From Candidatus Marinacidobacterales bacterium (lineage in GTDB: Bacteria; Acidobacteriota; Vicinamibacteria; Marinacidobacterales; SMYC01): a DNA stretch of 64,000 nt. Of the stretch, positions 3,744-26,571 are shown one piece after another (position 1 is the stretch's first letter; each line of letters opens with the position of its first letter). Both the position numbers and the translations under genes were made by a program. The stretch lies in contig CBDCYI010000005.1 in NCBI GenBank assembly GCA_965224085.1, forward strand, positions 832,001 through 896,000. The letters run 5' to 3'. The notes below the pieces were generated by a model. That model saw nothing but the letters and a program-made list of their open reading frames with translations. It searched no databases and was not told the origin of the DNA.

Positions 3744-6700
3744 CCGATGCGGTCCACATATACGTCGTCTTTACGATCAAAGGCGGCACTTGGTTCGCGA
3801 TACCTGTCTTCAGGTAGTCCTTGAAGTCGTAGGTCGCGTCTCCCAAAAGCACCACGTAGCGCAGGGACGGCCGACGCCAGTTGTGGTACGCGTAGCGCAG
3901 GAACTCGCGAAGCGCTTCGGGCGATGTCTCTCCAAAGCCGAACTCCGCGTAAACGTCCTCGATCGCCACCGACTTCACTTTCAGTCCTTGTTGGCGGCGC
4001 TGCTTCAGAAGAGGCCTTGCGGCGCCGAGGAAAGCTCGCGGGCCGACCAACAGATATTCGGCGCGGTGGCTTCGGCTCTTCAAAGCACTCGAAGGCATCG
4101 CGCGCACTTCCGGTCGGCGGACGGACTCCGCGCTCACCGCGTAGTAGGTTTCTCCCGTTTCCGCTCGGAAGCGCACACGGCTCGCATCGTTCTGGACGCC
4201 GCTCAGCCAACGCGGGTGCACGCCGCTCAGCTCGAGCACGTGGGCATCGGGGCCCAAACCGCTCACTTCCGCGACACCCGACTCCTTCCACACGCCTTCG
4301 AGCTCACCGTTTTTGGCCACAGGCACGCGCGGGTAGCTCAGCGCGAAGCGGTCGAGCGGACCATCGAGTACGCAGCACCCGTGTCGCCCACGTTTTCGAC
4401 TTCCAGAGTGTTCGTCCCTTCTGTCAGAACACCAGGCAGCAACGCCACGTCGATGCGGCGCGACGCCTTGCCGTCCCAGCTCGACTCACCGAGCAAGCTT
4501 CCATTCACGTAGACGCGCACGTGGTGGTCCGGGTCCGCTTCGAAATCGCTCACGCCTTGGAGCCACACACTCAAACCCGCGCTCTCACTCGTCGACGCAA
4601 GCGCACTCACTTCGAACGGGTAGCTCTTCGTTACCGGGGCAAATAGCAGGTCCCATAGCCATAGATCGGGAGCGGCTTTCTCAGTGAGGGCGGCTTGGTA
4701 ATACCGGTTTTGCTCTTGCGCCACGCCCTCCATGTAAAACGTCGTCGGCTCTCCGGAGGGCGATGCCATGCTGCCCGCCATCATCGTCCCGCTTCGGCCT
4801 ACTTCGAGCTCATACACCGCTTCGTTGCCATACGGGTTCAACGAAGCGCCTTCGCTCATGAAATACAGCGTCGAGCCCGGTTGGAAGCGCGGTCGATCGG
4901 GCTCCAAGCGGAACGCCACAGCCTTACCTTGACGGCTCAAGCGCAGCGAGCGCGCGGAAACACTGCGGCTTCCGCTGAGCACGTTCTCGTAGCGCACCGC
5001 GTAGAGACCTCGCTCGGTTGTCGCGAAGCGTCTCACCACTCTTCGTTCGTCGTGGCTTCGTCGCCTTCGGTAGCGGCGGCCTCGTCGTCCGACGGTCGCT
5101 TCTTCCGTTGGATCCGGCGTACGGAACGAGACCCGCACCACGAGTCGACGTGCCAACAGGAGCTGGCCTCTCGTCCCGTCCCAGCGCAGCGGTGCGAGCT
5201 CCACCAGAGCTTTTTTTACCTCGCCTTGGAAGCCGACTTCCAAGAGCCGTGCCGCGCTCGACGGGCTCAGTCCTTCGCCGCGGAACGCCGTGCGCGCTCG
5301 GCGGTTCACCGCACGCACCGTGCCGTCGAACGACGCCACCAACTCCGGTATCGCTGCTTGCGACGGGCGCAAGCTCGTGAACGCTTCGACGTCGCGCGCC
5401 CAAACCGACACCATCTCGACTTTGCGGCCCGCGATCGCTTCGATCCATTGACGCTTGACCGGGAGCGCCGGGGCGCTCGCTTCTCCAAGCTCCACGAAGC
5501 CCGGGATGCTCAGCCGTACCGAGCCGTCTTCTTGGGGCAGCGCGTAGAAGCCGTTCGTCGTCAGCTCGATCTGGATTTGGTCGCGCCCGCGCGGCGTCAC
5601 ACGCCATGTGCTCGACGCCGGCTCGCCATACGTAATGAGTGCATCTTCGGACTCTGTTGACGGTGGCGGCCCGTTATTGGGCTCGCTAGGCTCGTCGCTC
5701 AACGACGTATCGCCCTCGCGCGGTACAGCGCTCACCGGTCCGTGTCTCTCGGTCCGCCCCGAGCTCGCGCCCACCACCGAGGAGCCGAGCCCCGGGATCG
5801 CGCTCGACGTGATCCGCTCGAACTGGCCCGCTTCGCTTTCGGAGCGATACAGGTGGAAGCCGAGGTTATCGAGCTCCGTCGCGGTCTCCCACTCGAGCTC
5901 CACCGCACCGTCGACCCCGTGCGCCGAGAACGACAGCAAATCGACTTCCGTCGTCTCGATGCCCTTGTTGTAGAACCCGCAGTTCGGGTTCGGGGTGGGG
6001 TCGGGCGACGGCGTCACCGTCGCGTCCGGCCAAATCTGGTTGTTGTACTGCGCCTTGATGTAGCACGCCGAGTGAGCGGCGTCGGCGAAGCGCACTTCGT
6101 CGAGGATGCCGTTGAACATCTCGCCGGGCGGGTTCGATGCTCTGAGATGGCGCCCCATCATCGCGAACTGTCCGGTCGTTTCCCATGTCCCGGTGGTGAG
6201 GTCCGCGATGGGGCCCCCGTCCAGCACGCCGTCGATGTAGATACTCTGTGTGTCCGCCCCGACGTCCCGCACGGCGACCACATAGTGCCAGGTGTTCAGA
6301 GTCACAGAGCCTGTCGAGGCAAGAGAGTTAGCCCCCGTGGATGGCCCGAAGCTAGACCTCACTCGGTTGGTACTGTCGATACGAAAATGATACAGCGTCC
6401 TTGGACTGATCTCGTCACCGTCGGCGCTGTCGTAATCGTCGTATCGGAGGATAACTTGATGATTCGCCGAGCCCCTCGTGTTGACCCAAGCGGAGAACGT
6501 CACGGACGTGCTCTCGGTCATATGAAGCGACGCATCGTCGCCCAAATTGAACCAATCGTTCGACCCGTCGAAATCCAAGCTGCCGTTCGCCTGGCCCGCT
6601 ACTTGATCGGTGGTGGTCATACCCCCGTTCATCGTGCCGTTGTTGCCGGTGCCGGTGCTGTCCGCGATCTGAGGTGCCGCGCCCGAGGGGTCTTCACTCA

Positions 6701-9554
6701 AATGCCACACGGCCTGGTAGCTCATCGGACTCCACACGTCGGCGGGTTTTTGGGTCTGGGTCGAGGAGGTGATGTCGGTGTTGCCGTAGACGATCTGGAT
6801 GACGGTGTTGGAGCCGGCCATGTTGGTGTTCACCGACGGGAGCCGCACCCATGCGACGAGGTGGCCCGTGGCCGCGTTCCAGCTCTCGACCTCGTGGTCG
6901 AGGATGCACGGGGCGAGGCCGGCGCCGCCGCACGTCGTCGCGTCCACCGCGGTGAAGATGATGTCGTCGCCTTGAGGATCGGTGACGTGATCCCGAAGGT
7001 TGGTGTCGACGGAGTTGAACAGCATCGGGAAGTTCGTGAGCGTCGTCCCGCAGCTCGGATCGTCGATCTTGGTGCGGTCGATGGTGATGTTCTTGAAGTA
7101 GCTGTAAGGGCCAATCGAGCGGAACTCGTCCGCCCCGATGTCAGGCGTCGTCGCGTGACGCGAGTGCTGGTCGAAGTCTTCGGTGACGGGAAGGTCGGCA
7201 TCTTCGTCGAGATCGGCGCCGACGGTACCGAAGAGCGCTTCGGTGGTGTCCACGAGGTGCAGGTTCTCGGTGCCGTTACCGATGTTGAGGAAGTACGACG
7301 CGTACGCCGTTTGGTTCGTCACGCTTCCCGCGCCAAACATAGCGGCCGTCCCATCCGACGAGACGTTGTTGCTGCTGTTGGCGAGGTCGAAGGTTCCGGT
7401 GAAATTGTCCGTAATTCCATCGGTCGCGCTCATATCGAGCACGAGGTTGTTCCTCGCGATGAGGGTGCCGTTGTTTTGCTTTATGCCGAAGGCTTGAGCA
7501 CCGCCGTTGCCGTCGATGTTGTCTAGGTTGAAGATCGTGTTGTTGTGGAGGAACACCGTACCTCCCGCGTCGTTCACTTGCACACCGATGACGTTGTTGC
7601 CGGTTGCTGAGTTCTCCGACATGTCGTAGACGACCGAGTTCGAGAGCTTGACGTTCCCGCCCTCGAGGGAGAAGCCCCGAACTGCGCCGACCCCCGCGGC
7701 TACGTCGTGGAGGTCGTGCACGATGATGCTGTCGAGCAGAACATCCGTCGCGACGGACTCAACTCGGACCCCATCGATGCCGGATGCATTCGTGAGACCC
7801 GAGCCGTCGATCTCAATACCTGTGACGCGCACGTGCTCGTCCGAAATGTTGATGATGTCCTCCTCGACGCCCGGGGACGCGAACGAGGGCGCGATGCGAC
7901 ATCCGGAGCCCGCCACTCCGTTGTGCCGCTGGGACGTCCCGACCTCGTTCGTGGCGCTCGGCGCGTAGAGGTGGATGTACGTGTCCGGGCCGGTGGTGTA
8001 GCCGTCGATGGTGACGCCCGCTGTCTCCACGATGGGGCCGTCGTCGTAGCACGTCCAGTTGAGCTGGAAGCCGTTCCCGGCGAGATCCGCGGTGCCCAGG
8101 TGGAGGGCGTCGGAGCTTTGCGCCTCGGCGTCGGAAACCAAGTTGAACGCGCGGTAGATGTCGACGCTTGCGAGGGGGCCGAAGTTGATGTTGGTGTCGC
8201 CCGGCGTGCCGCCGCCCGCCCCCGAGTCCTGGAGCCTGAACTGCGTGGACGAGATGCGCTCGGCGATGTAATACCGCCTGGCACCGACCTGGACCTCGTC
8301 GCCCACGCCGATCCGATCGGCGGCCGGGGTGTCGAGTGCCATCAGACCCGCGGTAGCTGAGCCCGTCGACGAGTACAACGGCCCCGGGGCGGTCCCGATC
8401 GAGTAGTACATCTTCCGCTGGAACGCGAGCACGGCCCAGCTTATGTCCGCGGAGGCGCCGGTGAAGGTTCGCTGGAGCTGCAGCTGGGTCGGACTGTTGA
8501 TGTTCTGGGTGAACCAGGAGACGCCGGGAATGTCGTTCGCGACGTAGGGCGACTTTCCCCCTCTTTGCCACGCTCCTCCCCCGGCGATCGACCAGGACGG
8601 GCTCACGGGCGGGGTGAGCGTCGCGTTCAGAGGACCAGCCTGGCCACCGGGGAAGTTCATGTCGCCGCTCCTGACCGTCGTCCCGTCGGTGAACTCGACC
8701 AGGTACCAGGTGAGGTCCATGGTTAACCCGCCCCCGGTGGCATCGCGGTCGAAGACGAGGGTCGTCGGGCTGGTGATCCGGCCTCGGACCAGGCCCCTCC
8801 CGATTTGCGGGGCGGTGACAGCTCCGATTTCGTAGGTGTAGAGGAGCCACGACTTCGAGGTGTCGACGGCAGCGATGGGCCCGGCGGTGGGTATCGTTCG
8901 GGTCGTGGCTGTCACGGACGAGGTGCCCGAGGCGAGGCTGAGGCTCCCGCTCTGGACGCTGGCGCCCGTGAACTGGATCACCTGCCACTGAACCTCGTTG
9001 TTCGGCCCACCGTTGCGCGCATCTAGCCGGAGGGTCGTGGGGTTCGTTAGCTCCGCCCGCAGCCATTCGTTGGCGTCGTAGCTACTGCCGCCACTCCGGT
9101 AGCTAATCAGGGGGAAGGAGCTCGCCAGGTCGACCGGCGTGCCGAGGTTGACGTCGATGGGGAGAGGGGGAATAAAAGGGTTGATCTGGCCGCGCTGCAC
9201 GTTCACGCCGGAGGAGAACTCGGCCACGTACCATTCGATCGTGACGCTGCCACTGGTTCCTGTTCGGCGGAAGTCGAGCGTCGCGCCGCCGCCGATGATC
9301 TGGCCCATCACCAGCCCGTTGGGTGGGGCTGCCTGGTTGTTGCGCATGTTGAAGACGAGAAAGGAGCGGTTGAGGGTCACCGGGTTGAATGCGGGCGCCG
9401 TGACCTGGACGAACGTGGAGCCGCCGGGGAGGACGACACTGCCGTTCTGGACCGACTGGATCGTCGCCGCCTGGACCGGCTGGACGAGAGCAACTGCGCC
9501 CACGAGCGACAGGCAGAGATAGCCGGCGACGCGCATCCAGTGCCTCGGAGTCAT
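3744..9554 (-). pseudogene. Giant secreted multidomain protein, copy 1: signal peptide, four ~90-aa repeats, beta-helix, DUF2341-like, LamG, Ig-like, C25 propeptide and peptidase region; frameshifted and 3'-truncated
   Basis: ORFs 4338..9896 and 3733..4326 are joined by a 1-nt deletion near 4358 relative to the paralog (gagc-gga vs gagcagga). Likely start is ATG 9554 (MTPRHW...VQPVQA signal). The C25 motif YVVLLGDATYD is present; the gene ends at the IS-B junction before the catalytic His/Cys. Confidence 0.8.
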
Positions 9555-9600: not shown

Positions 9601-9616
9601 TGCAAAGAATACGCCA
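9601..9616 (-). promoter_or_regulatory. Sigma-54 (-24/-12) promoter of C25 gene copy 1
   Basis: Minus strand TGGCGT-ATTCT-TTGCA, exact consensus spacing, 47 bp upstream of ATG 9554. Confidence 0.75.
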
Positions 9617-9693: not shown

Positions 9694-9735
9694 TGTGTGG
9701 GGAGTATCGGGGCGGACGATGGGGATTCGCCTACA
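9694..9735 (-). promoter_or_regulatory. Putative enhancer (UAS) for a sigma-54 activator
   Basis: Minus strand TGTAGGCGAATCCCCAT...TCCCCACA; conserved upstream of paralog 2 and of the kinase operon. Confidence 0.6.
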
Positions 9736-11081: not shown

Positions 11082-13083
11082 CCCATGTTTCCCTTTTAGG
11101 TCTCTAAGTCATCATAAACAAAGGACTGAGATCCGCGGTTTGTCTCTACGCTGACAGCACCTCCTCGGAGAAGGCTGGCGGGTCGCGTTCAACGATTCCG
11201 AGTGCAGTCAGGATCGAGTTGGCGCGAGCGGTGCCGCGCGTGACGACGCGCTTGGTCCGCCCAGAACCCAGCTGTAAGTCGACGAGCCGGACCGAGCGTA
11301 GCGCTTGTAGTGCCTCGGTTGCGGACAGGTCGAGTTCGGCGACCTTGAGCTTTTTCTCAAGAGCCCGATGCACAAGGAAGGCCAGCGTAGCTACGAAAAG
11401 ATGTGCCTCCACACGCTCATCGGTCTGGTGGTAAACGGGACGCATCTCAATGACATCCTTAAGGCATGAGAAGGCTCGCTCGACCTCGTTTAGGTCCTTG
11501 TAAAGGCGCACGGCGTCGACCGGAGAGAGGTTTTGCTCCTCGGTTTGAATAACGTACTTACCCTCGTAGGCTTGCTCGCGCTTGAGGTTGACCGGGTGCT
11601 CGAAGAAGCGGAAGCGAGCGTTTTTGTACTCCCAGTCGTAGTAACGGTGACCGTGGTGGCGTGCCTGTATGCGCGCGGCGGCGGCACCGATTTTCTCGGG
11701 GGCTTTCAATCGTCCCTCGCGCACGCGGCGCTCGAGGGCCTCGAATGCCGCACGGGCACGTCCCATGGCCCGCAGCCTCTGCCCGCGCTCGTAGGCGAGC
11801 CTTTCGTCGCTGTGAACGACGAAGATGCGCACGCCAGACTGCTCGGAGCGGACTTCTTGCACACGAGTCTTAGGTGGCTCGGCTTTTTCGCTCACCGTGA
11901 TGCCACCAGGGCAGTCGATCCACTCTCCGCTGGCGCGCTCGATGTAACGATAGACCTCCTCGCGCCGTCGTCTTTGCAGCCCGACGAGATAGCCCTGCTT
12001 GCGCGAGCGCACCACCGCCAGGCTGTCGCTCGTTACCATCCCTCGGTCGCCGACAAAAACCACGCGGTGCAAACCGAATCGTTCGTTGAGATCGTTGAGC
12101 ACCTGCGGCACCGTTTTCGCGTCACGCCAGTTGCCGGCGAAAACATGGTGGGCGATCGGCCAACCGTCCACCATCACCAGACCGACAAGCACTTGCCGGT
12201 TACGCGGTCTGCGGTCGCGACTGTAGCCATGGGCGCCGAGCCCCGGAGGGCCTTGACCTTCGAAGTACGTCGACGTCAGGTCGTAAAACACCATGTCAAC
12301 CTCAAGCGAAAACAGATCCCGCAAGCGCAAAAACAGCTCTTTCTCGATCTGTTCTTTGCGGGCATGCAGCTGGTCGAGCGTTCGGTACCATTGCTTGAGT
12401 TGGCAAAACTCCACGCGAACCCGCGGGGAGCGACTCGCTCGCCGCTCCCCATCATCGCGCCACTGCGGCACCCACCGCCGCCCCTGCCGGTCGCAGACGA
12501 AGTCGGTCTCGAGCCAGCGCGCCAGACCGTGCTCGCTTGACGGAGCACATAGCCGGTTGGCGACCAGCACCAAAGCTCGCTCGCTTAGCGCCACTCCGTC
12601 GCGCTTGCCGCGGCCTCCGAGCCGGTCGAGAATCTGCTCCAGTCCGAGCTCGCGCCACAGCGTCGCCGTCACCACCATCGGACCCCAATCCCACGCGTCT
12701 GCCCCCGCGATCTGCTCGGCTGCTCGCTCGGTGTCGGCCGGTTCACCGGCCCCAAGCAACCGATTGAGGGAGTCGAGATTGGCAACTAGGAGATCCTTGC
12801 GCCCCAAGTTGCACACTACGCGTTGCTTCGGCTTGCCGTGCTCCCGATACGACTCGACCAGGCGGACATACTCATGTTGAACCCCTTTGCCGCCTGCGGC
12901 CCGAACGATGCGGAAGAACATAACCTGTCCTCACGCATACTACATATCATTGTCCACGATTACAACGTATTAATGGCGCTCAAAGCACAATATCTGTCTC
13001 TACGTTTTGGGCAAATTCAACCCCCGTTCCTTTGAATTCAGTCACTTACGAGCGTTAGGGTGCCCATAAAGGGTAAACATGGG
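11082..13083 (-). mobile_element. IS1634-family element
   Basis: IRs CCCATGTTTCCCTTTTA and reverse complement CCCATGTTTACCCTTTA; CTAG on both flanks (11078-11081, 13084-13087). Confidence 0.85.
11146..12921 (-). CDS. IS1634-family transposase, 591 aa
   Basis: VFYDLTSTYFEG, GYSRD, VGDRGM, YKDLNEVERAF, RPVYH. Confidence 0.92.
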   Translation of the reverse strand: MFFRIVRAAGGKGVQHEYVRLVESYREHGKPKQRVVCNLGRKDLLVANLDSLNRLLGAGEPADTERAAEQIAGADAWDWGPMVVTATLWRELGLEQILDRLGGRGKRDGVALSERALVLVANRLCAPSSEHGLARWLETDFVCDRQGRRWVPQWRDDGERRASRSPRVRVEFCQLKQWYRTLDQLHARKEQIEKELFLRLRDLFSLEVDMVFYDLTSTYFEGQGPPGLGAHGYSRDRRPRNRQVLVGLVMVDGWPIAHHVFAGNWRDAKTVPQVLNDLNERFGLHRVVFVGDRGMVTSDSLAVVRSRKQGYLVGLQRRRREEVYRYIERASGEWIDCPGGITVSEKAEPPKTRVQEVRSEQSGVRIFVVHSDERLAYERGQRLRAMGRARAAFEALERRVREGRLKAPEKIGAAAARIQARHHGHRYYDWEYKNARFRFFEHPVNLKREQAYEGKYVIQTEEQNLSPVDAVRLYKDLNEVERAFSCLKDVIEMRPVYHQTDERVEAHLFVATLAFLVHRALEKKLKVAELDLSATEALQALRSVRLVDLQLGSGRTKRVVTRGTARANSILTALGIVERDPPAFSEEVLSA

Positions 13084-16707: not shown

Positions 16708-16858
16708 GATGGGCTTACGCTAAAGCATAGCGATAACACTAGTCAAGTATTAATTTTTTCTCACGTCCTCGGTCCGGACAGAGTAGCTTGAGAAACTACT
16801 TTAACTGTAGGCTCTGCGCTTCGATACAGCGCTAGCCAGCTCGTCTCGGCGTCGCACT

Positions 16859-19800
16859 TTACCTAAGCGTCATAGCGGGGTCGCCGAAGAGGTTGTAGAT
16901 GCTCAGAAGCTCGGGGAAAGCGCCCGTTTCGGCGTAGGCTTCTTGCGCGGCGAGCACCGCGTCGCCCAGACGCTCGTGGTTTCCATCGACCAGCTCACGT
17001 AGTAGCGCTTGGTGGAATCGGTGCGCGGGGTCGTTCACGCTCAGCCCGCTCGGCGAGAACGCGGCGATGGCGCCCTTGTCCGTCGCCTTCACCAGCTCTT
17101 CGCTCAGCGAGTCGAGCGTCGGGAGGTGGAAGAAGCCGTTCAAGCAGTTCATGGTCAGCAGAATCGGTTGCTGCGCCTGGCTCGAAAGCGAGGCGACATC
17201 GGTGTAGTTGAAGACGTTCTCCGATGCCCACACCACGATGCCTCCATGGCCGATGTAGCTCACGATCGAGGCCCCCCCGTCGAAGCTCTGTAGGATCGCT
17301 TCGCGCGTCGCTGCCGTTCCGAGCTCGCTCAACGCGATCGTCTCCGTGGGTCGCGAGGCGAGCACTCCCGTCGTTAACGTGCTCGCGTTCGCTTCAAAGT
17401 TACCCGCCGTGTCCGCATTGTCCGCGACCAGTACGACGCGACCCGATAGGGTCGCGTCGCCCCGCTCATAACCCAAAATCTTAGCGACCATCTCTTCCGC
17501 TTCGCCCACCGAGCTCGCCGCGAGCCGACCAAGCGCGATATCCGGCAGCAAATCCTCACCGTTGACCGCCGCGTAGGCCGGGTCCGACGCCGTCCACATG
17601 TACGTCGTCTTCACGATCAAAGGCGGCACTTGGTTCGCGATACCTGTCTCCAGGTAGTCCTTAAAGTCGTACGTCGCGTCTCCCAAGAGCACCACGTAGC
17701 GCAGCGACGGCCGGCGCCAGTTGTGATACGCGTAGCGCAGGAACTCGCGAAGCGCTTCGGGCGACGTCTCTCCAAAGCCGAACTCCGCGTAGACGTCCTC
17801 GAGCGCGACCGACTTCACTTTCAGTCCTTGTTGCCGGCGCTGCTTGAGAAGAGGCGTTGCCGCCCCTAGGAAAGCTCGCTGGCCGACCAAGAGATATTCA
17901 GCGCGGTTCCCTCGGCTCTTCAAACGCGTCGTGGGCATCGCCCGCACTTCGGGTCGGCGTACCGATGCCGCGCTCACCGCGTAGTAGGTTTCGCCGGACT
18001 CCGCTCGGAAGCGCACACGGCTCGCATCGTTTTGGACGCCGCTCAGCCAACGCGGGTGCGCACGGCTCAGCTCGAGCACGTGGGCTTCGGGGCCCAAACC
18101 GCTCACTTCCGCGGTGCCGGACTCCTTCCACACGCCTTCGAGCTCACCGTTGTCAGCAACAGGCACGCGCGGGTAGCTCAGCGCGAAGCGGTCGAGCAGG
18201 ACCATCGAGTACGCAGCACCCGTGTCGCCCACGTTCTCGACCTCGAGCGTGTTCTCTCCTTCAACGAGCACACCCGGCAGCAGCGCGACATCGAGACGCC
18301 GCGACGTTTTGCCGTCCCAGCTCGACTCACCCACCAAGCTTCCATTCACGTACACGCGCACGTGGTGGTCCGGGTCGGCCTCGAAGTCGGTTACGCCTTG
18401 AAGCCATACGGTCAAGCTCGAGCTGTCCGTCGTTGACGCGAGCGCGCTCACTTCGAACGGGTAGCTCTTCGTCACCGGTGCGAATAGAAGGTCCCATAGC
18501 CATAGATCGGGAGCGGCTTTCTCAGTGAGGGCGGCTTGGTAGTAGCGATTCTGCTCTTGCTCCACGCGCTTCATGTAAAACGTCGTTGGGCCGCCTGACG
18601 GCGCTGCCGATCGGCTCTGCATCCTCGCGCCCGTCCGGCCCATCTCGAGCTCGTAGACGGCCTCGTTGCCGTACGGATTCAACGAAGCGCCTTCGCTCAT
18701 AAAGTACAACGTCGAGCCCGGTTGGAAGCGCGGCCGGTTGGGCTCCAAGTGGAACGCCACCGCTTTTCCTTGACGGCTCAGTCTCAGCGAGCGGGCGGGC
18801 ACACTGCGGCTTCCGCTCATCACATCTTCGTAGCGCACCGCGTAGAGACCTGGCTCCACCGCTGCGAGCCGTTTCGCCACGCTTCTTTCGTCGTGGCTTC
18901 GTCGCCTTCGGTAGCGGCGGCCTCGTCGTCCGCGCGTGGCTTCTTCGGAAGGATCCGGCGTCCGGAACGACACGCGCACCACGAGTCGACGTGCCAACAG
19001 GAGCTGGCCTCGCGTCCCATCCCAGCGCAGCGGCGCCAGCTCCACCAGAGCTTTTTTCACTTCGCCTTGGAAACCCACTTCCAAAAGACGCGCCGCGCTC
19101 GAGGGGCTCAGTCCTTCGCCGCGGAACGCCGTGCGCGCTCGGCGATTCAACGCGCGTACCGTGCCGTCGCGCGACGCCACGAGCTCCGGCATCGCCGCTT
19201 GCGACGGGCGCAAGCTCGTGAACGCCTCCACATCGCGCGCCCTCACCGAGACCAGCTCGACTTTGCGGCCCGCGATCGCTTCCACCCACTGGCGCTTCAC
19301 TGGCAGCGCCGGAGCGCTCGCTTCGCCCAGCTCCGCGAAGCCCGGGATGCTCAGACGCACCGAAGGTCGTGCACGATGATGCTGTCGAACCGAACGTCCG
19401 TCGCGACCGTCTCGGCTCGGAACCCATCGATACCGCGCGCATTGGTGATGCCCGACCCATCGAGCTCGATCCCCGTGAAGCGTACGTGCTGGTCCGTAAT
19501 GTTGATGATGTCCACGTCGGCGCCGGGCGATGCGATCACGGGTGCGATGCGACATCCAATTCCCGCCACTCCCTCGTGCCGCTGGGGACTTCCGACCTCA
19601 CCGAGCGAGAACGGTGCATAGAGATGGATGTACGCGTCCGCGCCGGTGGTGTAGCCGTCGATGAGGACGCCCGCTGTTTCCTGGATGGGGCCGTCTTCGT
19701 AGCAGGGCCAGTTGAGCTGGTAGCCGTTGGTGGCGAGGTCCGCGGTGTTCAAGTGGAAGGCGTCGGAGCTCTCCGCCTCGGCCTCGGTGACCGAGTTGAA

Positions 19801-21213
19801 CGCACGGTAGATCTCGAGGTTCGAGCTAGCGAACGAGACGTTCGGGTCCGCCGGCGTGCCACCGCCCGCTGCCGAGTCCTGGATCCGAAACTGCGTCGAC
19901 GAGATGCGGCTCGAGATGTAATACCGCCTCGTCGAGGCGCCGACCCGAATTTCGTCGCCTACGCCGACCCGCTTCGCCGCGGGAGCGTCGAGCGTCAGCA
20001 AGCCCGCGGCCGCGGAGCCCGTCGACACGTGGAGCGCCGCGGTCTCCGTCCCGATCGAGTAGTACAACCTCGGCGTGAACGCGACCACGGCCCATCCGAA
20101 GTCCGCGGTGGTGCCCCCGGTCAATTGGCGTCTCAGCCTCACTTGGGTGGGGTTGATGACGTTCTGTTGGAACCAGGCGACCCCAGGAATGTCGTTCGAC
20201 TGGTAGGGCGACTTGCCCCCTATCTGCAGGTACCCGCCCGCGGCCATCGACCAGGCCGGGTCCACCTGGGGGGCGAACGTTGCGACCTTGTTCGTCTGGG
20301 TGTTGGTGAAGTTCATGTTGCCGTGCCGCACCGTCGTGCCGTCGGTGAACTCGACCAGGTACCACGTGAGGTTGATGGATACACTGCCCCCGGTGCGGTC
20401 CCGATCGAAGTTGAGGTTCGTCGGGCTCGTGATCCGGCCGCGGACCAGGCCCCTCCCGATCCTCGGGTTCGTTCCGCCACTACCCGTTTCGAGGCTGTAG
20501 AGGAGCCACGACTTCGTGGTGTCGACGGCGGGGGTGAGGGTCGCGTTCTGGGATGCGGAGCTCGCACCGAAGTTGACGTTCCCGCTCTGGACCCTGGCGC
20601 CGGTGTACTCGACCACCTGCCACGCGATCCGGGCCCCACCGCCGGTGTGATCCAGTCGGAGGTTCGTGGGGCTCGTCAGCTCCGCCCGAATGAAGTCGTC
20701 CCGGTCGAAGTCGCCGCCGGCTTCCCGGATCGTGACGATGGGGAAGGATTTCGACAGGTCGACCGCCGTTGTGAGGGTGACGTCGAAATTCGGCTGCGGA
20801 GCCGCATAGACCTCGCCGTGCTGGACGAACACGCCCGAGGAGAACTCGGCCACCTTCCAGTGGATCGTCATAGCGGTGCCGCCGCTCGCGCATTGGGCTC
20901 TTTCGAACCGGAGCGTCGTGCCACCGGGGAGGATCCGGCCCGTCGCCTTCGTTCTGCCTGCCCAGAGCCCGTTGTTGCGTTGGCTAAAGACGAGAAAGGA
21001 ACGGTCGCGGGTTACCGGGTTGAATTGAGGCGCGGTGACGTCGACGATGCAGGTCGTGTTGGCCATGGTGAAAGACCCTTTCTGCACCTTGTGGATCGTC
21101 GCCGCCTGAGCCGGCGGGGCGAGAGCAGCTGCGCCCACGAGCGCCAGGCAGAGGAGACCCGCTCCGCGAATGGCCTGCCCCGGAACCGTCCTCCGTTCAT
21201 CAGCGATCGTCAT
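16859..21213 (-). pseudogene. Giant secreted multidomain protein, copy 2, with a complete C25 cysteine peptidase domain; internal out-of-frame deletion
   Basis: ORF 19351..21213 (signal peptide, repeats) joins ORF 16859..19555 out of frame near 19362; ~2.2 kb present in copy 1 (about 5522-7710) is missing. Catalytic motifs SYIGHGG and MNCLNG, end YNLFGDPAM. Confidence 0.82.
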
Positions 21214-21233
21214 TGCTCCCCTTCGTCGCTATT

Positions 21234-21249
21234 TGCAATGAACGCGCCA
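21234..21249 (-). promoter_or_regulatory. Sigma-54 promoter of C25 gene copy 2
   Basis: Minus strand TGGCGC-GTTCA-TTGCA, followed by RBS-like GAAGGGGAG and ATG 21213. Confidence 0.78.
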
Positions 21250-21327
21250 ACACCGAGGCTCGTCGATTCTTGTAAATGATTACGTTTGAACGTGTTGAGC
21301 TCGGAGAAAATCCATGGCGGCAGCGTG

Positions 21328-21368
21328 GTGTGGGAATTTCTGGGCAAAACGATGGTGATTTGCCTACA
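21328..21368 (-). promoter_or_regulatory. Putative enhancer (UAS)
   Basis: Minus strand TGTAGGCAAATCACCAT...TTCCCACA, with the same 119-bp offset from the -24 box as in copy 1. Confidence 0.6.
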
Positions 21369-21498
21369 CCCGTCCGCGACAGGATGCTCGGCGTGGGACG
21401 GTACTCGAGAAGCTAAGCCGGCCCTACAGAGTGTAATGTGTTAGGGGCGGACACGATCCGCCGCGCGCCGATACCCGTCTATCTTTCGTACACGTGCT

Positions 21499-21532
21499 TT
21501 GAATCTAGCCAAAATATAGCTATAATATAGCC
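21499..21532 (+). promoter_or_regulatory. Sigma-70 promoter with operator repeats of the TA operon
   Basis: TTGAAT-16 bp-TATAAT; overlapping TATAGC repeats and the palindrome TATAGCTATA; ATG at 21536. Confidence 0.65.
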
Positions 21533-21535
21533 AGA

Positions 21536-21829
21536 ATGCGGCACGAGGTAACCCTCGCTCCCGCGGCCGTGGAGGACTTGAGCAAGCTCAAAGCAACGAT
21601 GCGTGCGCGCGTCCGAGATGCGATTGAGACGCACTTGCGTCACGAGCCGGAAAAGGCGACGCGCAGTCGAATCAAACAGCTGCGCGGATGGTCTCACCCG
21701 CAGTACCGGCTCCGAGTCGACGAAGTCCGCATCTTTTACGACGTGTCCGACGGAGTCGTCGAGGTTCTAGCCATTGTTCCAAAGTCTCGGGCAGCGGCAT
21801 GGCTCGAACAGTTGGGGGATGAAGAATGA
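21536..21829 (+). CDS. RelE/ParE-family type II toxin
   Basis: 97 aa; IKQLRG, YRLRVDEVRIFYDV. Confidence 0.88.
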   Translation: MRHEVTLAPAAVEDLSKLKATMRARVRDAIETHLRHEPEKATRSRIKQLRGWSHPQYRLRVDEVRIFYDVSDGVVEVLAIVPKSRAAAWLEQLGDEE

Positions 21830-22083
21830 AAAAAATAGCGCTCTCTGAAGTCAAAGACGACCTCTCCAGATATTTGCGGCTCGCTGAGAAAGAAGACGTG
21901 ATCATCACTCGACACGGAAAGCCCGCGGGAGTTCTTATCGGTTTCAAGTCGGAAGACGAATGGTTCGACTATCGGTTGGAGAACGACCCACGCTTTCTTG
22001 CAAGAATCGAGACGGCCCGCGCGAGCCTTCGAGCAGGGCGAGGCGTGAAACTCGAAGATGTCGAATTGGGCGACGAGTCGTAA
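21826..22083 (+). CDS. Phd/YefM-family antitoxin
   Basis: LSEVKDDLSRYL, VIITRHGKPAGVL; ATGA overlap with the toxin. Confidence 0.9.
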   Translation: MKKIALSEVKDDLSRYLRLAEKEDVIITRHGKPAGVLIGFKSEDEWFDYRLENDPRFLARIETARASLRAGRGVKLEDVELGDES

Positions 22084-22127
22084 CACTCTCGCCACGAGCC
22101 ACCCCAGCAGCGGATGAATCGGTCCGG

Positions 22128-22200
22128 ACATGTCCTCGACGGTTGAGTCGTCCGGAAGCCCATTGAGCACTTGGGTGACGAATTTCTTGCCCGATGACAT
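22128..22200 (-). pseudogene. N-terminal fragment of a small, possibly antitoxin-like protein
   Basis: MSSGKKFVTQVLNGLPDDSTVEDM, then an abrupt change to unrelated sequence. Confidence 0.4.
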
Positions 22201-22264
22201 GCTTCGAGCCTCTCCAGATTGTATCGTGTAGCGCCAGGCCGAGTCCCGGAAACGAGGTCACAAG

Positions 22265-23728
22265 TTAGCGTGTACCCACGATCGCCTCGCCCGGGAACAC
22301 TCCCTCTCGGATTTCGCCGTCGGTGAGCACGTGGACGCCGTTCACAAAAACGTGAGCGATGCCCGCGGACGGGAGGTCGCCTTTTTCGAACGTCGACCGA
22401 TCGAGGATCGTGTCGGGGTCGAAGAGCGTCAAGTCTGCGTCCGCGCCGACTTGCACGCGGCCTTTGGTTTTCATTTGTGTGGTCGTCCCCTGAAGGCGCT
22501 GGGCGGGAAGCAGCGTCATCTTCGAAAGTGCATCCATCAAGCTGAGCGTTTGGCGGTCGCGCGCATAGTGGCCGAGAACGCGTGAGAAAGTGCCGGCGCC
22601 TCGCGGGTGGGCGGGGCCGTAAAGAAACGGGATGCCGTCGCTTGCGACCATGACGTCCGTTTGCGCGACGATCCACGCGTTGGTCTCCTCGTTGCGGCCG
22701 TGGCTGATGAGCCATCCGCCTTCGCTGCGGTAGCGCGCGAAGCTCTCTCGGGTCAACCGCTCGCCCGTCGCCGGCCATTGCAAGCGCGCGAAGCGCTCAT
22801 TGGGCCAGGACTCCCACGCGTCGTAGGACGCGGACTCGATCCGCGTGGAGCCGGCGGTGTACGGATAGGCTTCCGTCGTCACGTCGATCCCGCGTGCCAC
22901 GGCGCCGCGGATGAGATCGAGCACGACAGGGGCCAGCTCGCCCGCGCTCGAGTTCAAGTGCACGAAATGAAGGGTTGCGCCGGTCGACGCCGCGTTCGCC
23001 AAACATTCCTGAAACGCGCCGAGCGTGCCGCCATTCCCTCGCCCGCGGGTGTGAACGTAGATAGGGACGTCTTGCTCTTTCGCGAGCTTGAAGAGATCGA
23101 AGATCTCGGATCTCGACGCGCCCGGGGTGTAGGTGATACCGAGCCCAAAGCCGAGGCCTCCGTCCTCGAGCCCTTGCTTCATGAGCTCGCGGAGCCTTCG
23201 GCGTTCGGACTCGGTCGTGTCCTTCGACTCGAAGTCTTCGTAGTCGAGAAGATCGGTGCGCTCCGGTGAAAGGGTCGCCCAGCTCTCGAGGTCGGCGCCG
23301 TGGAACAACTTGAGACGAGCTCCAAGGTGGCCCACGGTAGCGCCGTAGTGGATGACGGATTGGCCCGCTTGTTTTTTGAGCCAGCTGTCCATCGGAAAAA
23401 TACCGAACTCCATTTCGAGCGCGGTCGTCACGCCGTCCGCGAGCTGCAGTTTGCGAGAGACGGGGTCCTGGCCGTGCGCATGAAGATCGATGAATCCCGG
23501 CGCGACCACGAGACCGGCCGCGTCGATCGTCCGGGCGCCCGTAAGCGGCTCTTCACGGATCGCGACGATCTTGCCGTCGGCGATACCAACGCTTCGGACA
23601 GCGTCGAGACCGGTCTCGGGATCCATGACGCGGCCGCCCGCAAGCACGATCTCGAAGTCCTGAGCATCGATGGACAGGGCGAGCGCGAGTGTCGCCGCGC
23701 AGACGAGCAAGAACCGAAAGCATTTCAC
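22265..23728 (-). CDS. Secreted amidohydrolase (N-acyl-D-amino-acid deacylase-like)
   Basis: PGFIDLHAHG, EAYPYTAGST, HPRGAGTF, GADADLTLFD; signal peptide after GTG 23728. Confidence 0.88.
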   Translation of the reverse strand: MKCFRFLLVCAATLALALSIDAQDFEIVLAGGRVMDPETGLDAVRSVGIADGKIVAIREEPLTGARTIDAAGLVVAPGFIDLHAHGQDPVSRKLQLADGVTTALEMEFGIFPMDSWLKKQAGQSVIHYGATVGHLGARLKLFHGADLESWATLSPERTDLLDYEDFESKDTTESERRRLRELMKQGLEDGGLGFGLGITYTPGASRSEIFDLFKLAKEQDVPIYVHTRGRGNGGTLGAFQECLANAASTGATLHFVHLNSSAGELAPVVLDLIRGAVARGIDVTTEAYPYTAGSTRIESASYDAWESWPNERFARLQWPATGERLTRESFARYRSEGGWLISHGRNEETNAWIVAQTDVMVASDGIPFLYGPAHPRGAGTFSRVLGHYARDRQTLSLMDALSKMTLLPAQRLQGTTTQMKTKGRVQVGADADLTLFDPDTILDRSTFEKGDLPSAGIAHVFVNGVHVLTDGEIREGVFPGEAIVGTR

Positions 23729-23791
23729 GGGTGGCCTCCCGACGTGAGAGTCCATTCGAAATCATACTATCACCGCAGTTCCGTAGACTTT

Positions 23792-24900
23792 CTAGACGGA
23801 AGAGTGGACTCGACGATCGGTAGATTTCTCCGCCCGCTCTATAAAGAGTCGAGGCCACATGAAGCGCGGCAGTCCCATGGCGAATCTCGCGGCTCGGGTA
23901 ACACCATGCGCGACTTGAAAAGGCAGACGGTAGAGCTCGTTGAAAGGCCCTCCGACGCCGACCGTGCCTTCGATCGCGTTCGGCCAGTGCTGACGAAGTT
24001 CTTTCAGAACACCCGCGGGGTGACGTAGGTAGCTTCCTATCGTCCCGCGCTGTTTGAAACCGGCTCCCCACTGACGGACTACGGTGGGAACGAGCCAGGA
24101 AGGAAGCTCCCGGGCGCGCTCTTTCACCGGGGTCCCGAGAAGGCGCGCCCCGAGTAGCTGATGAGCCAGTCCAAGCGTGCAGGCCACATAGTCCGTGCGC
24201 CGCCGGTCCCCGCTCATGAAATACTCCCAGTCGAAGTGCGCGGGTCGAGACTCGAGCGCCGCCCCGACATCACAAAGCCAAAGGGGACGCGCGACACCGT
24301 GGCGCAACAGGTGCAAGCAAAGCAAGCGAAGATGGTCCTCGGGGCCAGCAGGCGCACCTCGACGCCGCCGAGATTCAGCTGCCGCGCGCGGCCGAACACT
24401 TCTTCAAGGCGGCGATCGTCCAACTCGAGAAATCCTCGATGCAGATCGACCGGCCCCGGTATGGCCGCGTTCAAGGCCATCCGCGCCGTCCTGTGCTGCT
24501 CCGGCCGCACGTAGAGGTCGATGTCACCGTAGGGGCGCAGACCCTGCTCCGGGTACAACTGAGCCGCCGCAAAGCCTTTGGCGAGGAGGGGTTCCACTCC
24601 CGCCTCGCGAAGCACGGCGAGTGCTTTTTGAATTTGGGATTCGTGGATCGCTGTCTGAAGGGTGTGGAGGCGGTAGCCTTGTTTGAGCTCGATCGCAGCC
24701 GGGCAGCTCTGAAGTTTGGTGTCACGCACGCGCCACCAGCCCAAGGCCGCGGCCCCTGAGCCAAGAAGCAATGGTGTGATTTCCTTGAGCTCAGCCGGTG
24801 AGAGATCTAGAGGAAGCTGTTTGCGGCGCCACGCGCCATCGAGCACGGCAGCCACGAGCTTGCCGCGTCGCGCCCACTCCGCGGTCTGAGAGCTGTCCAT
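23792..24900 (-). pseudogene. Nucleotidyltransferase family protein (NTP_transf_5-like), one frameshift near 24340
   Basis: LLAKG, GLRPYGDIDLYV, VDLH in ORF 24214..25077; continues as LCLHLLRHG..LWLCDV in ORF 23792..24325. Confidence 0.82.
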
Positions 24901-24937
24901 CAAAGGTGAACCACAGACCGCTAGCTTTGGCGAGATC

Positions 24938-25453
24938 TCACAAGCAGCCACCAAGTCCGTCGCAGACGCCGGTGATGCAGTCAAACGGAGGACATGAGAG
25001 ACTCGGTGTGCCGGCGTCCTCACCGCCGCAACTGGTAACGCAGGTTGCTGAGGCTTCTGCTGGCGTCGGCGCCACAATCGAAGTGACCAAGGGTAGGAGG
25101 ACCGTGAGTCCCCCTACCAGGCCCAATCTCCGTACCAATTCCCGACGTCCAAAGCGTGCGACCTCCGGCGGTCCGCTTATCCGCTCCTGCAGCAAGCGGG
25201 CCTTGGCTAGCTTGTCGAGCGCCAACCACACCACCGTCTCATCCATCTTGCCAGGCGGTGCCTTCAACTCTTTCTGCAAAAGCGTGGACATTCTTTTGAC
25301 GCTCGTTCGGCCGTCGCAGTGCTTGAAGACGAAGGCAGCGGTCTGATTCAGGCAGTGGGCTCGGTGACGGTCCAAGTCGTAGACCAACGTCTCCTCGGGC
25401 AATTCTTTGATCACCAGCCCATCTTCGCGAACCCGTGGCTTCTTCGATTTCAT
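24938..25453 (-). CDS. PqqD/RRE-domain protein fused to an RR-hydrophobic-AxA segment and a Cys-rich C-terminal peptide
   Basis: ETLVYDLDRHRAHCLNQTAAFVFKHCDG (PqqD-like); GRRELVRRLG..VTSIVAPTPAEA; tail with six Cys. Confidence 0.85.
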   Translation of the reverse strand: MKSKKPRVREDGLVIKELPEETLVYDLDRHRAHCLNQTAAFVFKHCDGRTSVKRMSTLLQKELKAPPGKMDETVVWLALDKLAKARLLQERISGPPEVARFGRRELVRRLGLVGGLTVLLPLVTSIVAPTPAEASATCVTSCGGEDAGTPSLSCPPFDCITGVCDGLGGCL

Positions 25454-25481
25454 CCGTTCGTCTCTTTCTCCGGTCTTTGCT

Positions 25482-26309
25482 TTAGTGACGGCTCACGCAA
25501 CTCGTCAATAGAGATTCGGCCATCTCGCTGGCCTCGCCCCTCACGCCCTTCAGGACCAACGTGTCCGAGACGATCTGCTGCAGCGTGGCGAGCGAGGCCT
25601 CGGGTCTTCGCCGAACGGGCACCGTGTTGGCCATCAGCTCGAGCATGGCCCTGCCAGGGCTCAGTCGGGTGGGGCGCCAGCGCGCCCCGGGCCGGTATTG
25701 GGGCAGCACGACGAGGTCCACGGGAAGGGGTTTCTTGCCTTGAAGGCTACCCAGGGCTTCGGCCGGTAGATTTCTCGCTCGGGTGCCGTTGTTTTCACGC
25801 ATCGAAAGCGGCTTGGGATACGGATGCACGCGCCCTCGATCATCGAACACCGCAAATTCATCGGAATAGTACGTCGCTCCAGCTCGCAACAGCTCCGCCA
25901 CCAAGGTCGTTTTGCCGCTGAAACTGCGCCCTGGGATAACAATGGCCCGTCCGCGCCAACCTACGACGCCCGCGTGCACAAAGACTCTGCGACGCGCCGC
26001 CGAAGCTACGTCGAGCCGTAAGTCGGATTCGAGAACTTCGAGGACCTTGTCGAGATCCATGGTGCGCGCCCGCCTTGCCACTCCCGAGTACAGCAAGTTG
26101 TACCGTCGAACGTGCGGTCGCACGCGGCCGCCAACCCTAAGCGAGTACATCGTGTCGACGACCGGGGTCCGGGAGGCCTTCCACCCAGGTGGAAGGTGCT
26201 CGGGAAGCCGCTCCAAAACCTCCGGCTTGCTGACTCGGATCCCGATGCGCACTTCGTACGAAACGAAGCATGTACCGGCCGCCCACCCGAGGCGGTCTAA
26301 CTTCGCCAT
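25482..26309 (-). CDS. HPr kinase-related P-loop kinase
   Basis: FVHAGVV, GRSFSGKTT, YYSDEFA. Confidence 0.85.
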   Translation of the reverse strand: MAKLDRLGWAAGTCFVSYEVRIGIRVSKPEVLERLPEHLPPGWKASRTPVVDTMYSLRVGGRVRPHVRRYNLLYSGVARRARTMDLDKVLEVLESDLRLDVASAARRRVFVHAGVVGWRGRAIVIPGRSFSGKTTLVAELLRAGATYYSDEFAVFDDRGRVHPYPKPLSMRENNGTRARNLPAEALGSLQGKKPLPVDLVVLPQYRPGARWRPTRLSPGRAMLELMANTVPVRRRPEASLATLQQIVSDTLVLKGVRGEASEMAESLLTSCVSRH

Positions 26310-26443
26310 TCACGTGGAGCGTTTCTTGAACCGGGGCATCAAGTTTGGCAGCGTGGGCATATGGGTTCTCTGTTTCCTCCGATGCGCGTATGAGCGTCAT
26401 CAACGCGGGTCCATCGAATGGAGTTCTCTGAACACGTTGGACA

Positions 26444-26459
26444 TGCAAGCTCCGCGCCA
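26444..26459 (-). promoter_or_regulatory. Sigma-54 promoter of the kinase-PqqD-nucleotidyltransferase operon
   Basis: Minus strand TGGCGC-GGAGC-TTGCA. Confidence 0.75.
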
Positions 26460-26554
26460 ATCTTTGGAAGCTGGCGAGCTCAGCCCTAAACAACTCACCA
26501 TCAACAGCTTCGCGGCGTGATCCCGCACGACAAAGGGAAGGAGGTACTAGTGAA

Positions 26555-26571
26555 GCGGGGATATCCCTACA
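26555..26571 (-). promoter_or_regulatory. Putative enhancer (UAS) matching those of the C25 genes
   Basis: Minus strand TGTAGGGATATCCCCGC, 112 bp from the -24 box. Confidence 0.6.

Follow-up and report, generated by a model that had tools for sequence, protein, structure and literature searches.

Several described systems resemble parts of the locus reported here. Lasso-peptide clusters of the paeninodin and pseudomycoidin types combine an HPr-kinase-like enzyme that acts on the precursor with a nucleotidyltransferase and a PqqD-like B1 protein, which is a recognition element (RRE) for peptides that are made on the ribosome and modified after translation (RiPPs). In those PEP-CTERM/exosortase systems that have PrsK/PrsR as sigma-54 activator, exopolysaccharide loci encode secreted matrix proteins that are under sigma-54 control, and bacterial selenoprotein genes of the E. 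coli fdhF type carry the selenocysteine insertion sequence (SECIS) directly after the UGA codon. We analyzed a 64,000-nt stretch from a Candidatus Marinacidobacterales bacterium (contig C5, positions 832001–896000, hereafter the window; genome of 6.87 Mb in 12 contigs, 60% G+C) that carries two giant genes for secreted proteins with a Peptidase_C25 domain (C25_1 and C25_2) and, on the same strand, a group of genes for an HprK-like kinase, an RRE protein with a cysteine-rich tail (PqqD-Cys) and a nucleotidyltransferase of the NTP_transf_5 family, which we refer to as the trio. The gene inventory was built from an open reading frame (ORF) listing together with Pfam and NCBIfam scans, in which 19 window proteins were scanned against Pfam.

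The explanation that best accounts for the observations overall, and in which our confidence is somewhat better than even, joins a set of five sigma-54 promoters, a conserved module of C25, kinase, RRE and nucleotidyltransferase genes, and a kinase gene recoded at an in-frame UGA. The three promoters of the window would belong to the five-member set, in which four promoters would serve giant secreted C25 proteins and one the kinase operon, while the C25 genes and the trio would be two halves of one module, conserved in several phyla of soil bacteria. The parts all come from known superfamilies, and the system resembles known kinds, namely RRE-guided tailoring, C25 peptidases and the sigma-54 control of surface proteins. 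An earlier note on this DNA had proposed a sigma-54 regulon linking the C25 genes to the operon, and it missed the in-frame UGA with its SECIS-like hairpin, the broken genes and two members of the promoter set that lie outside the window.

As in the lasso clusters, the same three protein kinds stand side by side, with an RRE whose best structural matches include lasso B1 proteins (TbiB1; 6jx3) and a kinase of the HprK/PEPCK fold. Unlike in those clusters, a signal anchor and a Cys-rich tail are here joined to the RRE, the kinase bears an N-terminal extension with a Cys or a proposed selenocysteine (Sec), and the partner is a giant C25 protein. Neither an Asn-synthetase-like cyclase nor a B2 peptidase of the lasso type is among the Pfam matches of the 19 window proteins and of 71 proteins from 14 related loci, and no obvious short precursor gene was found in the window or in these loci. 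With the PEP-CTERM/exosortase systems the locus shares the sigma-54 control of secreted proteins and the association with exopolysaccharide loci, including nearby TPR proteins of the PrsT kind that are weak, sub-threshold matches. It differs from them in that no exosortase or PEP-CTERM signal occurs among the scanned neighbors and that the sorting candidate is a C25 domain in cis.

Scanning one genome per species yielded 78 PqqD-Cys loci, distributed over Acidobacteriota (mostly Blastocatellia/Pyrinomonadaceae), Gemmatimonadota, Methylomirabilota and Nitrospinota. When these loci were searched by tblastn with the window proteins, HprK was found in 44, NTP_transf_5 in 58 and C25 in 29, and the C25 gene lay on the same strand as the PqqD-Cys gene in 26 of the 29. 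A C25 gene is present within 10 kb in 21 of the 37 loci that have at least 9 kb of sequence on both sides. The commonest order is HprK, PqqD-Cys, NTP_transf_5 and then a protein of 1000–2100 aa with C25 as its last domain, and the gaps between the NTP_transf_5 and C25 genes, which are on the same strand, are 49–126 nt; in alternative layouts the C25 gene comes first, or PqqD-Cys and C25 form a pair without kinase or nucleotidyltransferase (L013, L017, L023). A C25 gene (E ≤ 1e-40) occurs in 20 of 30 carrier genomes and falls within the trio locus in 13 of these, and in seven genomes of 2.7–7.6 Mb (G055, G061, G066, G071, G073, G076 and G078) the C25 gene in the trio locus is the only one of the genome, where the chance of a sole C25 gene falling in that locus is ∼0.3–0.7% per genome. 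Within the order to which the window belongs, HprK was found in 8 and C25 in 23 of 55 genomes (7 and 22 of 54 if G003 is left out), and all eight HprK carriers have C25. Related genomes in these counts are not independent. The linkage of C25 and the trio across genomes is far above chance, and it is strong without being obligatory, which bears out the neighborhood association that the earlier note had put forward for checking.

Several observations pull the other way. In 7 of the 20 C25-bearing carriers the C25 genes lie outside the trio locus, nine Gemmatimonadota genomes have the trio without any C25 (as does one Pyrinomonadaceae metagenome-assembled genome), some genomes hold up to 20 C25 paralogs, many without a trio nearby, and in the window's order HprK and C25 are within ∼5 kb of each other in only three of the eight carriers. 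These observations would suit an alternative in which the trio and the C25 proteins have separate surface or matrix functions that share an activator in this genome and exopolysaccharide islands elsewhere, with no direct biochemical link. In Blastocatellia, the cluster is surrounded by GT4, Wzy_C, Wza, Wzc, TPR and carbohydrate-binding module genes and by genes for giant ExeM/NucH-like, nuclease-type proteins, so that proximity could equal island membership. The seven genomes whose sole C25 gene sits inside the trio locus, the short same-strand gaps behind NTP_transf_5 and the direct pairs of PqqD-Cys and C25 genes are difficult to accommodate under separate functions, and we assign this alternative a minor, though appreciable, probability.

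On the side of the conserved module, the C25 proteins themselves are variable outside their C-terminus. Pfam scans of the window proteins and of the 71 neighbors from the 14 loci show N-terminal LTD, Laminin_G_3, DUF5122 propeller, beta-helix or PATR domains. In the window, ORF B of C25_2 holds a full Peptidase_C25 domain (257.4 bits) that ends at the last residue of the protein, preceded by a Propeptide_C25, and its YIGHGG and TMNCLNG segments line up with the RgpB and PorU motifs that hold the His and the Cys, residues that we take to be the catalytic ones, so that the dyad is kept. This likeness to PorU and the gingipains is limited, however, since the C25 proteins score below the PorU cut-offs (203.4 bits against 420 for NF033707, and 110 against 450), as do relatives scored against NF033707 (252 and 231 bits), and C25 is here the last domain of a 1000–2100 aa protein. 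With no domain after C25, there is no room for a C-terminal sorting domain of the type IX secretion system, and the analogy to PorU as a transpeptidase of that system, on which the earlier note had drawn, is weak.

PqqD-Cys has 1908 relatives at E ≤ 0.001, nearly all with full-length coverage. The protein consists of an RRE domain at about residues 10–95, an invariant RR, a hydrophobic segment, an AxA site and a Cys-rich tail of ∼37 aa with six Cys. An alignment of 24 relatives shows the RR within S/N-R-R-x-h-h-R/K, followed by the hydrophobic stretch and A-P-T-P-A-x-A; the tails are 35–50 residues long with 6, 8 or 10 Cys, an even number in all 24, and the invariant positions are the RR motif, P121, A128, P129 and three Cys. 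The structure model of PqqD-Cys is confident only at residues 10–95 (E13–17, E22–26, E31–35, H37–44, H52–63 and H72–84), for which TbiB1, a lasso B1 protein, and PqqD are the closest folds (TMt 0.62–0.77), with the lasso B1 protein 6jx3 also among the best. The match to TbiB1 has a TMt of 0.74–0.77 and a root-mean-square deviation of 2.6–2.7 Å at a Foldseek E-value of only 0.03, and a stored homolog in the ESM Atlas matched 'hypothetical protein, PqqD' clusters only.

A complex model of the L073 kinase with RRE residues 1–100, computed with our own alignments as input, supports docking of the kinase on the RRE domain without demonstrating it: it scored 0.74, against 0.13 for the best of three controls. 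Of 157 solved complexes 116 reached that mark, and of 215 mismatched pairs 2 did, a calibration that is rough when own alignments are used. The docking runs agree in at least 97% of contacts with a partner pLDDT (predicted local distance difference test) of at least 78, and the predicted interface lies between kinase residues 230–257 and the three strands of RRE residues 11–31 (L073 numbering). We had also considered that the RRE binds the N-terminal extension of the kinase as a leader peptide, and dropped this idea because the model places kinase residues 230–257 on the RRE instead. We know of no solved complex of an HprK-like kinase with an RRE. As a separate observation, the RRE domain contains two nearly invariant Cys, at residues 34 and 46 (AHCLN and HCDG), the first of which, numbered 31 in L073, falls within the predicted contact with the kinase; together with the Sec/Cys of the kinase, this pair could conceivably have a redox or metal role.

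The only family match of the kinase is to TIGR04352 'HprK-related kinase A' (listed with TIGR04355 'kinase B'), the best-scoring curated family. The window kinase and its relatives reach 69, 59, 52 and 62 bits against a cut-off of 200, which places them in a sister family of TIGR04352 and not among its members. An AlphaFold2 model of the Cys-form kinase of L073 (pLDDT 95.6) has the N-terminal extension packed on the body, and its Foldseek matches are chains of PEP carboxykinases and of HPr kinases, with E from 5e-5 to 1.5e-3 and a low TMq (0.26–0.49 among the matches listed). A profile-free search of 1.84 billion protein representatives with the read-through kinase gave 7963 relatives at E ≤ 0.001, and a separate count found 7338 members at E ≤ 1e-30 among the 8000 candidates scored.

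The conventional call for the kinase is a 275-aa ORF (25482–26309), and we propose a start ∼16 codons earlier, with translation reading through a UGA. At the same in-frame position, TGA is found in 43 of 49 HprK loci; the six other entries are L073 (TGT), L087 (TCG), L088 (TCC), the divergent L059 and L064, and L090, which is mis-registered by an indel and has TGA when read by eye. Conserved coding sequence continues across the codon with no gap, as hPR[LF]K-x-x-S-T before it and xK[LIV]DRLGWA after it, and the conserved extension comprises 14–16 residues. By our count, 51 of the best 150 kinase representatives start exactly at the residue after the UGA. We also chose by eye 40 read-through homologs, in which the match begins before that residue. 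At the UGA position, Cys occurs in 16 of these, Ser in six, Ala in four, Gly, Arg and Pro in three each, Thr and Glu in two each and Gln in one.

Downstream of the UGA, all 258 cells of the hairpin stem are paired across the 43 sequences, with one pair changing from CG to UA in nine sequences and to UG in one. None of 500 column shuffles reaches the observed values, and sliding the partner by 1–3 columns leaves only 35–62% of cells paired. The bases that can still change, namely the third ones of the Arg and Ala/Thr codons and the first one of the codon that follows, stay complementary. A sample of 401 genomes of the phylum added six new UGA loci and five sense-codon loci at the DNA level, after exclusion of L100, which is the same contig as L012, and of L105 and L106, sense-form genes without a register by motif search. 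In this enlarged set every pair of the hairpin is kept by 48 of 49 distinct UGA loci and by two of eight sense-codon loci, the other six having a broken hairpin, and the two paired sense-codon loci carry GGA and TGG, each one step from TGA. The minimum free energy fold of the window's own 63 nt is unexceptional (z −1.2), with the region pairing within a longer stem, so the case for the hairpin is carried by the alignment. An Rfam search over 21000–27000 gave nothing for the hairpin, its one match being at chance level (Ysr141, E 3.4).

The genome encodes the machinery for Sec, with tRNA-Sec (selC), SelB (364.9 bits), SelA (550.1 bits) and SelD (279.6 bits), and SelB is present in 29 of the 30 carrier genomes. 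As in genes of the fdhF type, there is an in-frame UGA, a hairpin 14 nt downstream with a G-rich loop, Cys homologs and the genes selA, selB, selC and selD. In contrast to that type, the Sec would lie outside a redox motif, in the short stretch that extends a P-loop kinase-like protein at its N-terminus, and many relatives have a residue other than Cys. Three points count against reading the codon as Sec. Non-Cys residues occupy the position in 24 of the 40 read-through homologs, which is unusual for a catalytic Sec and argues that the protein can do without this residue; the conserved DRLGWA also constrains most of the hairpin, which leaves only 3–4 positions free to vary; and SelB is near-universal in the window's order (52 of 55 genomes, G003 being among the three without), so its presence does not discriminate and satisfies a necessary condition only. 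On balance, the sequence comparisons make it likely, in our judgment with good confidence, that the kinase carries Sec at the in-frame UGA, decoded by means of the SECIS hairpin.

The alternative is that the UGA is a true stop, which would end an ORF of 11–26 codons with a C-terminal Ser-Thr that serves as the kinase substrate, a precursor of RiPP type, while the kinase itself would be made by termination and reinitiation. An in-frame ATG, GTG or TTG does lie upstream of the TGA in all 43 UGA loci, most commonly at a distance of 14 codons, the peptide carries the conserved P-R-L-K ... S-T motif, lasso enzymes of the HPr-kinase type phosphorylate the C-terminal Ser of their precursors, and a UGA abutting the next coding codon would suit translational coupling. 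The codon after the TGA is ATG in 32 loci, but it is ATT, ATA or ATC in five, CTG or CTC in three and CAG in three, which makes it a non-start codon in 11 of 43, and the CAG cases have no start codon before the conserved DRLGWA. Moreover, the UGA is always in frame and always at the same codon position, the 40 homologs and eight loci at the DNA level read through it with a sense codon that is most often Cys, and the hairpin both covaries and decays where the UGA is lost. For these reasons we regard a true stop as improbable and retain Sec as the reading of the codon.

The −24/−12 boxes and the TGTAGG boxes that the earlier note had listed for C25_1, C25_2 and the HprK-like operon are all exact and on the same strand, with box-to-promoter spacings of 119, 119 and 112 bp. 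The pattern TGGCGY-N5-TTGCA has three matches in the window, all on the minus strand, against a shuffle expectation of 0.02, and none of 100 shuffles gave at least three; TGTAGG-N5-CMCC likewise has only its three listed sites, all on the minus strand, against an expectation of 0.05. All three sites keep the sigma-54 geometry, with TGGCGT or TGGCGC-N5-TTGCA and the GG-N10-GC doublets as in TGGCAC-N5-TTGCW, and the genome encodes rpoN (Sigma54_DBD, 224.9 bits) and has 30 matches to Sigma54_activat (PF00158), in line with the sigma-54 assignment made before. Since the patterns had been defined from the three sites themselves, the whole 6.87-Mb genome was scanned as a test. It contains 11 matches to the sigma-54 pattern and 13 to the upstream box, and the two co-occur on the same strand at 50–300 bp exactly five times, always 112–122 bp apart: at C5:822065(+), 841616(−), 853249(−), 858459(−) and 124226(−). 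Both pairs outside the window, of which that at 822065 lies 10 kb before it, precede further C25 paralogs, so that the pair is specific to the C25/HprK gene set and not background. With one mismatch allowed per element, 29 further pairs appear, scattered over 63–195 bp in a noise-like manner.

The five promoters are not all independent. The four upstream regions of the C25 type share homology over ∼250 bp, which starts at the box, takes in the promoter and reaches into the signal peptide, so paralogy accounts for four of the five, and the two C25 promoters of the window make up one independent case only. The HprK upstream region, in contrast, cannot be aligned with them outside the boxes. We compared the 132 genomic TGGC-N7-TTGCW sites with the 16-mer consensus that the four C25-type boxes give. 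Among the 128 sites that are not of the C25 type, the HprK promoter comes closest, with 4 mismatches of 16, where the next site has 5 and most have 7–9. In the same-genus genome G053, the orthologous HprK intergenic region has diverged with indels, yet box and promoter are kept as perfect blocks (GCGCGCTGCTGTAGGGA..TCCCC and GATTGGCGCGGAG.TTGCA) 122 bp apart, the box being conserved as TGTAGGGAATTCCCC. Further away, a sigma-54 box precedes the HprK gene of G038 (L084), with a palindromic GTGGTGTTTACCCCAC ∼105 bp upstream, and in L073 such boxes stand upstream of HprK as well as of C25. We conclude that the promoter signals held in common are real and more than chance, and that they consist of one family of paralogous promoters plus one independent promoter.

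Some of the evidence tempers the idea of a regulon. With four paralogous promoters, the regulon comes down to the one independent promoter and its conservation in relatives, and the lead of this promoter in the ranking is a single mismatch (4 against 5). The cognate enhancer-binding protein, for which the earlier note had called for a search, was not identified among the 30 PF00158 matches, none of which lies within tens of kb of the loci, and in Blastocatellia loci a sigma-54 box is rarely found before the trio, which makes sigma-54 control lineage-specific. That the shared boxes are a mere remnant of duplication or chance, with the C25 promoters copies of each other and the HprK promoter an accidental match, would suit the ∼250 bp of homology, the post hoc patterns and the narrow ranking margin, but is very improbable given the lack of other exact pairs in 6.87 Mb, the otherwise unalignable HprK upstream region, the G053 ortholog, which despite its indels retains the box, the spacing class and the promoter, and the boxes before both gene sets in L073.

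Two side observations concern these promoters. A gene for a 998-aa GGDEF-GAF-Sigma54_activat protein (L081 4176–7172(−), C5:144176–147172) is a weak lead to the activator; upstream it has CGTAGGGTTCCCCCC and, 99 bp further on, GGGCACACAATTTGCA, each element with one mismatch, and it is followed by a gene for a Reg_prop/Y_Y_Y protein, and is ∼20 kb from the C25 paralog at C5:118.7–124.2 kb. The same-genus genomes G051 (L092 1501–1862) and G054 (L094), both without an HprK gene, have the box-plus-promoter pair (TGTAGGGTAATCACC ...) once each. The pair in L092 lies before an ORF of 75 aa that belongs to no known family.

The earlier note had counted two giant C25 genes and a three-gene operon. 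Two C25 genes are indeed present on the minus strand, but neither is intact. C25_1 has a 1-nt frame break at ∼4357, after which the C25 domain runs for no more than its first 97 of 374 positions, and its homology to intact relatives ends at ∼3745, beside an insertion sequence (IS) transposase gene. In C25_2, ORF A and ORF B overlap out of frame; the gene aligns to C25_1 residues 31–618 (59% identity) and 1345–1732 (88%), with ∼725 central residues absent at the junction. The kinase, RRE and nucleotidyltransferase genes do lie on one strand, but a frameshift interrupts the NTP_transf_5 gene at ∼24343, next to a CCCC run (frame −1 to −3 at 24340–24346), where intact relatives score 89.6–107.5 bits for PF14907, and an amidohydrolase gene follows 37 nt after it, which is possibly the last gene of the operon. 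An amidohydrolase of 45–47% identity is found 3–4 kb from the HprK gene in two of seven distinct places of the same order (L087 13581–15083 and L088 14568–15941). The C25 paralogs outside the window are each split into two ORFs as well, in one case at a run of seven G, where the break could be an error. The sole apparently unbroken full-length C25 gene of the genome is on contig C4 at ∼950.2 kb (L083, 1256 aa); a sigma-54 box close to the consensus, TGGCACAAAATTTGCT, lies ∼130 nt ahead of its start (L083 4241–4256), and the 240 nt upstream contain no TGTAGG box.

These breaks were compared over 16800–26700 with contigs of four public runs from three studies. A 10.4-kb contig of X1, which may be the sample from which the window was assembled, spans 19334–26700 without a gap and differs in two letters, the C25_2 region 19115–20859 is crossed by contigs of X3 and X5 without an indel, and contigs of X1 and X5 cover the NTP_transf_5 break, also without an indel. 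Long-read assembly errors, considered as a cause of the C25_2 and NTP_transf_5 breaks, were dropped since the run contigs reproduce the window across both, and both breaks are thus real in the main population. In X4, a lesser contig at depth 12 of 47.5 contains an additional base behind 24344; this insertion would alter the frame at the NTP_transf_5 break. The X1 and X5 contigs also cover the UGA site, where none of the displayed differences falls (30 further differences were not displayed). The disruption of both window C25 genes and of the NTP_transf_5 gene tells against a functioning system here: the module may not work in this organism, and in this genome it is probably partly decayed and impaired.

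Table 1. Coordinates of the features in the window
Feature	Position	Strand	Description or basis
IS transposase gene	2224..3588	−	DUF772 + DDE_Tnp_1, 454 aa; at the point where C25_1 breaks off; Pfam
C25_1	3733..9554	−	1738-aa ORF 4338–9554 (DUF2341, Laminin_G_3, Propeptide_C25) + C25 fragment 3733–4326
−24/−12 promoter of sigma-54 type, C25_1	9601..9616	−	TGGCGTATTCTTTGCA; pattern match
Upstream box, C25_1	9721..9735	−	TGTAGGCGAATCCCC; pattern match
IS genes and DUF4143 ATPase gene	between C25_1 and C25_2		block of genes; Pfam
C25_2	16859..21213	−	ORF A 19351–21213, 620 aa, signal peptide; ORF B 16859–19555, 898 aa, Propeptide_C25 + C25
−24/−12 promoter of sigma-54 type, C25_2	21234..21249	−	TGGCGCGTTCATTGCA; pattern match
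Upstream box, C25_2	21354..21368	−	TGTAGGCAAATCACC; pattern match; another TGTAGGG 60 bp further upstream
ParE-like toxin and Phd/YefM antitoxin pair	21536..22083	+	inserted between the operon and C25_2; Pfam
Amidohydrolase	22265..23755	−	PRK09061-type, signal-peptide-like N-terminus; 486 bits, cut-off 340
NTP_transf_5 gene	23792..24900	−	two pieces; PF14907 56.3 bits for the N-terminal piece, cut-off 31.2
PqqD-Cys protein	24938..25453	−	171 aa; PF05402 27.6 bits, cut-off 23.4
HprK/PEPCK-fold P-loop protein	25482..26360	−	292 residues, U (proposed) at 17 (MPTLPNLMPRFKKRST-U-MAKLDRLGWA...); Walker A GRSFSGKTT
SECIS-like hairpin	26279..26295	−	6-bp stem, 5-nt loop, starts 14 nt after the UGA; RNAalifold on 60 nt from TGA
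In-frame UGA, proposed Sec codon	26310..26312	−	conserved position across loci
−24/−12 promoter of sigma-54 type, HprK-like operon	26444..26459	−	TGGCGCGGAGCTTGCA; pattern match
Upstream box, HprK-like operon	26557..26571	−	TGTAGGGATATCCCC, containing the palindrome GGGATATCCC; 112 bp before the −24 box; candidate site for an enhancer-binding protein

Outside these features, IS transposase genes are unusually numerous in the window, at 14–1678, 2224–3588, 11146–12921, 13274–14074, 14170–15534, 15708–16532, 33889–35276, 35822–37435, 47487–48050 and 50416–51972. The 454-aa ORF at 14170–15534(+) has Pfam scores identical to those of the transposase at 2224–3588(−), and the ORFs at 33889–35276 resemble a frameshifted copy of this 454-aa kind. 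Another broken gene of the window, for a DUF3604 protein, is split into two ORFs, 42726–43181 and 43221–44483 (+), which match profile positions 23–160 and 175–591. An operon of the aerotolerance type at 53459–61017(−), with BatA/BatB/BatD, TPR, DUF58 and MoxR, is ordinary and unrelated to the C25 module.

In Acidobacteriota, Methylomirabilota and Nitrospinota, the genes of both halves are usually found together, often inside exopolysaccharide loci, while in the window's lineage the halves would be transcribed separately and held together by a common activator at the TGTAGG box. The RRE protein would be a bitopic or exported precursor, with a cytoplasmic RRE, a signal anchor of twin-arginine type with an AxA site and a disulfide-rich tail of 35–45 aa. 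The kinase, docked on the RRE, and the nucleotidyltransferase would modify this protein in the cytoplasm before export; the RR-type segment would then take the tail across the membrane, where it would stay anchored or be cut at the AxA site. Outside the cytoplasm, the tail may work with the C25 proteins as a substrate, anchor or cofactor. Phosphorylation, ligation and the link between the tail and C25 are steps that we infer. A more specific version, which we consider doubtful, is a new type of system for peptide maturation and surface display that would be widespread among soil bacteria. In it the Sec-bearing kinase and the nucleotidyltransferase would dock on the RRE fused to the exported disulfide-rich peptide, with the Sec/Cys as a catalytic or relay nucleophile and the modified peptide as an acceptor, anchor or activator for giant, adhesin-like proteins with a C25 'sortase' of their own at the C-terminus.

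Among the curated families searched, no model covers the PqqD-Cys or the NTP_transf_5 protein, and the source names of kinase and PqqD-Cys relatives, where given, are 'hypothetical', 'PqqD family protein' and, once, a wrong transporter name. Among the titles and abstract openings that our searches of open-access papers and preprints gave, we found no work that links C25 with the trio and no description of an HPr-kinase-like selenoprotein. The kinase probably represents an undescribed selenoprotein family. If the UGA is Sec, gene callers systematically cut the N-terminus of the kinase, in a family with thousands of members. The synteny provides a first functional handle on the giant proteins with C-terminal C25, which some Acidobacteriota encode in up to 20 copies, and an RRE fused to an exported Cys-rich peptide, with predicted docking of a kinase, would mean that chemistry guided by an RRE also operates outside the classical RiPP clusters.

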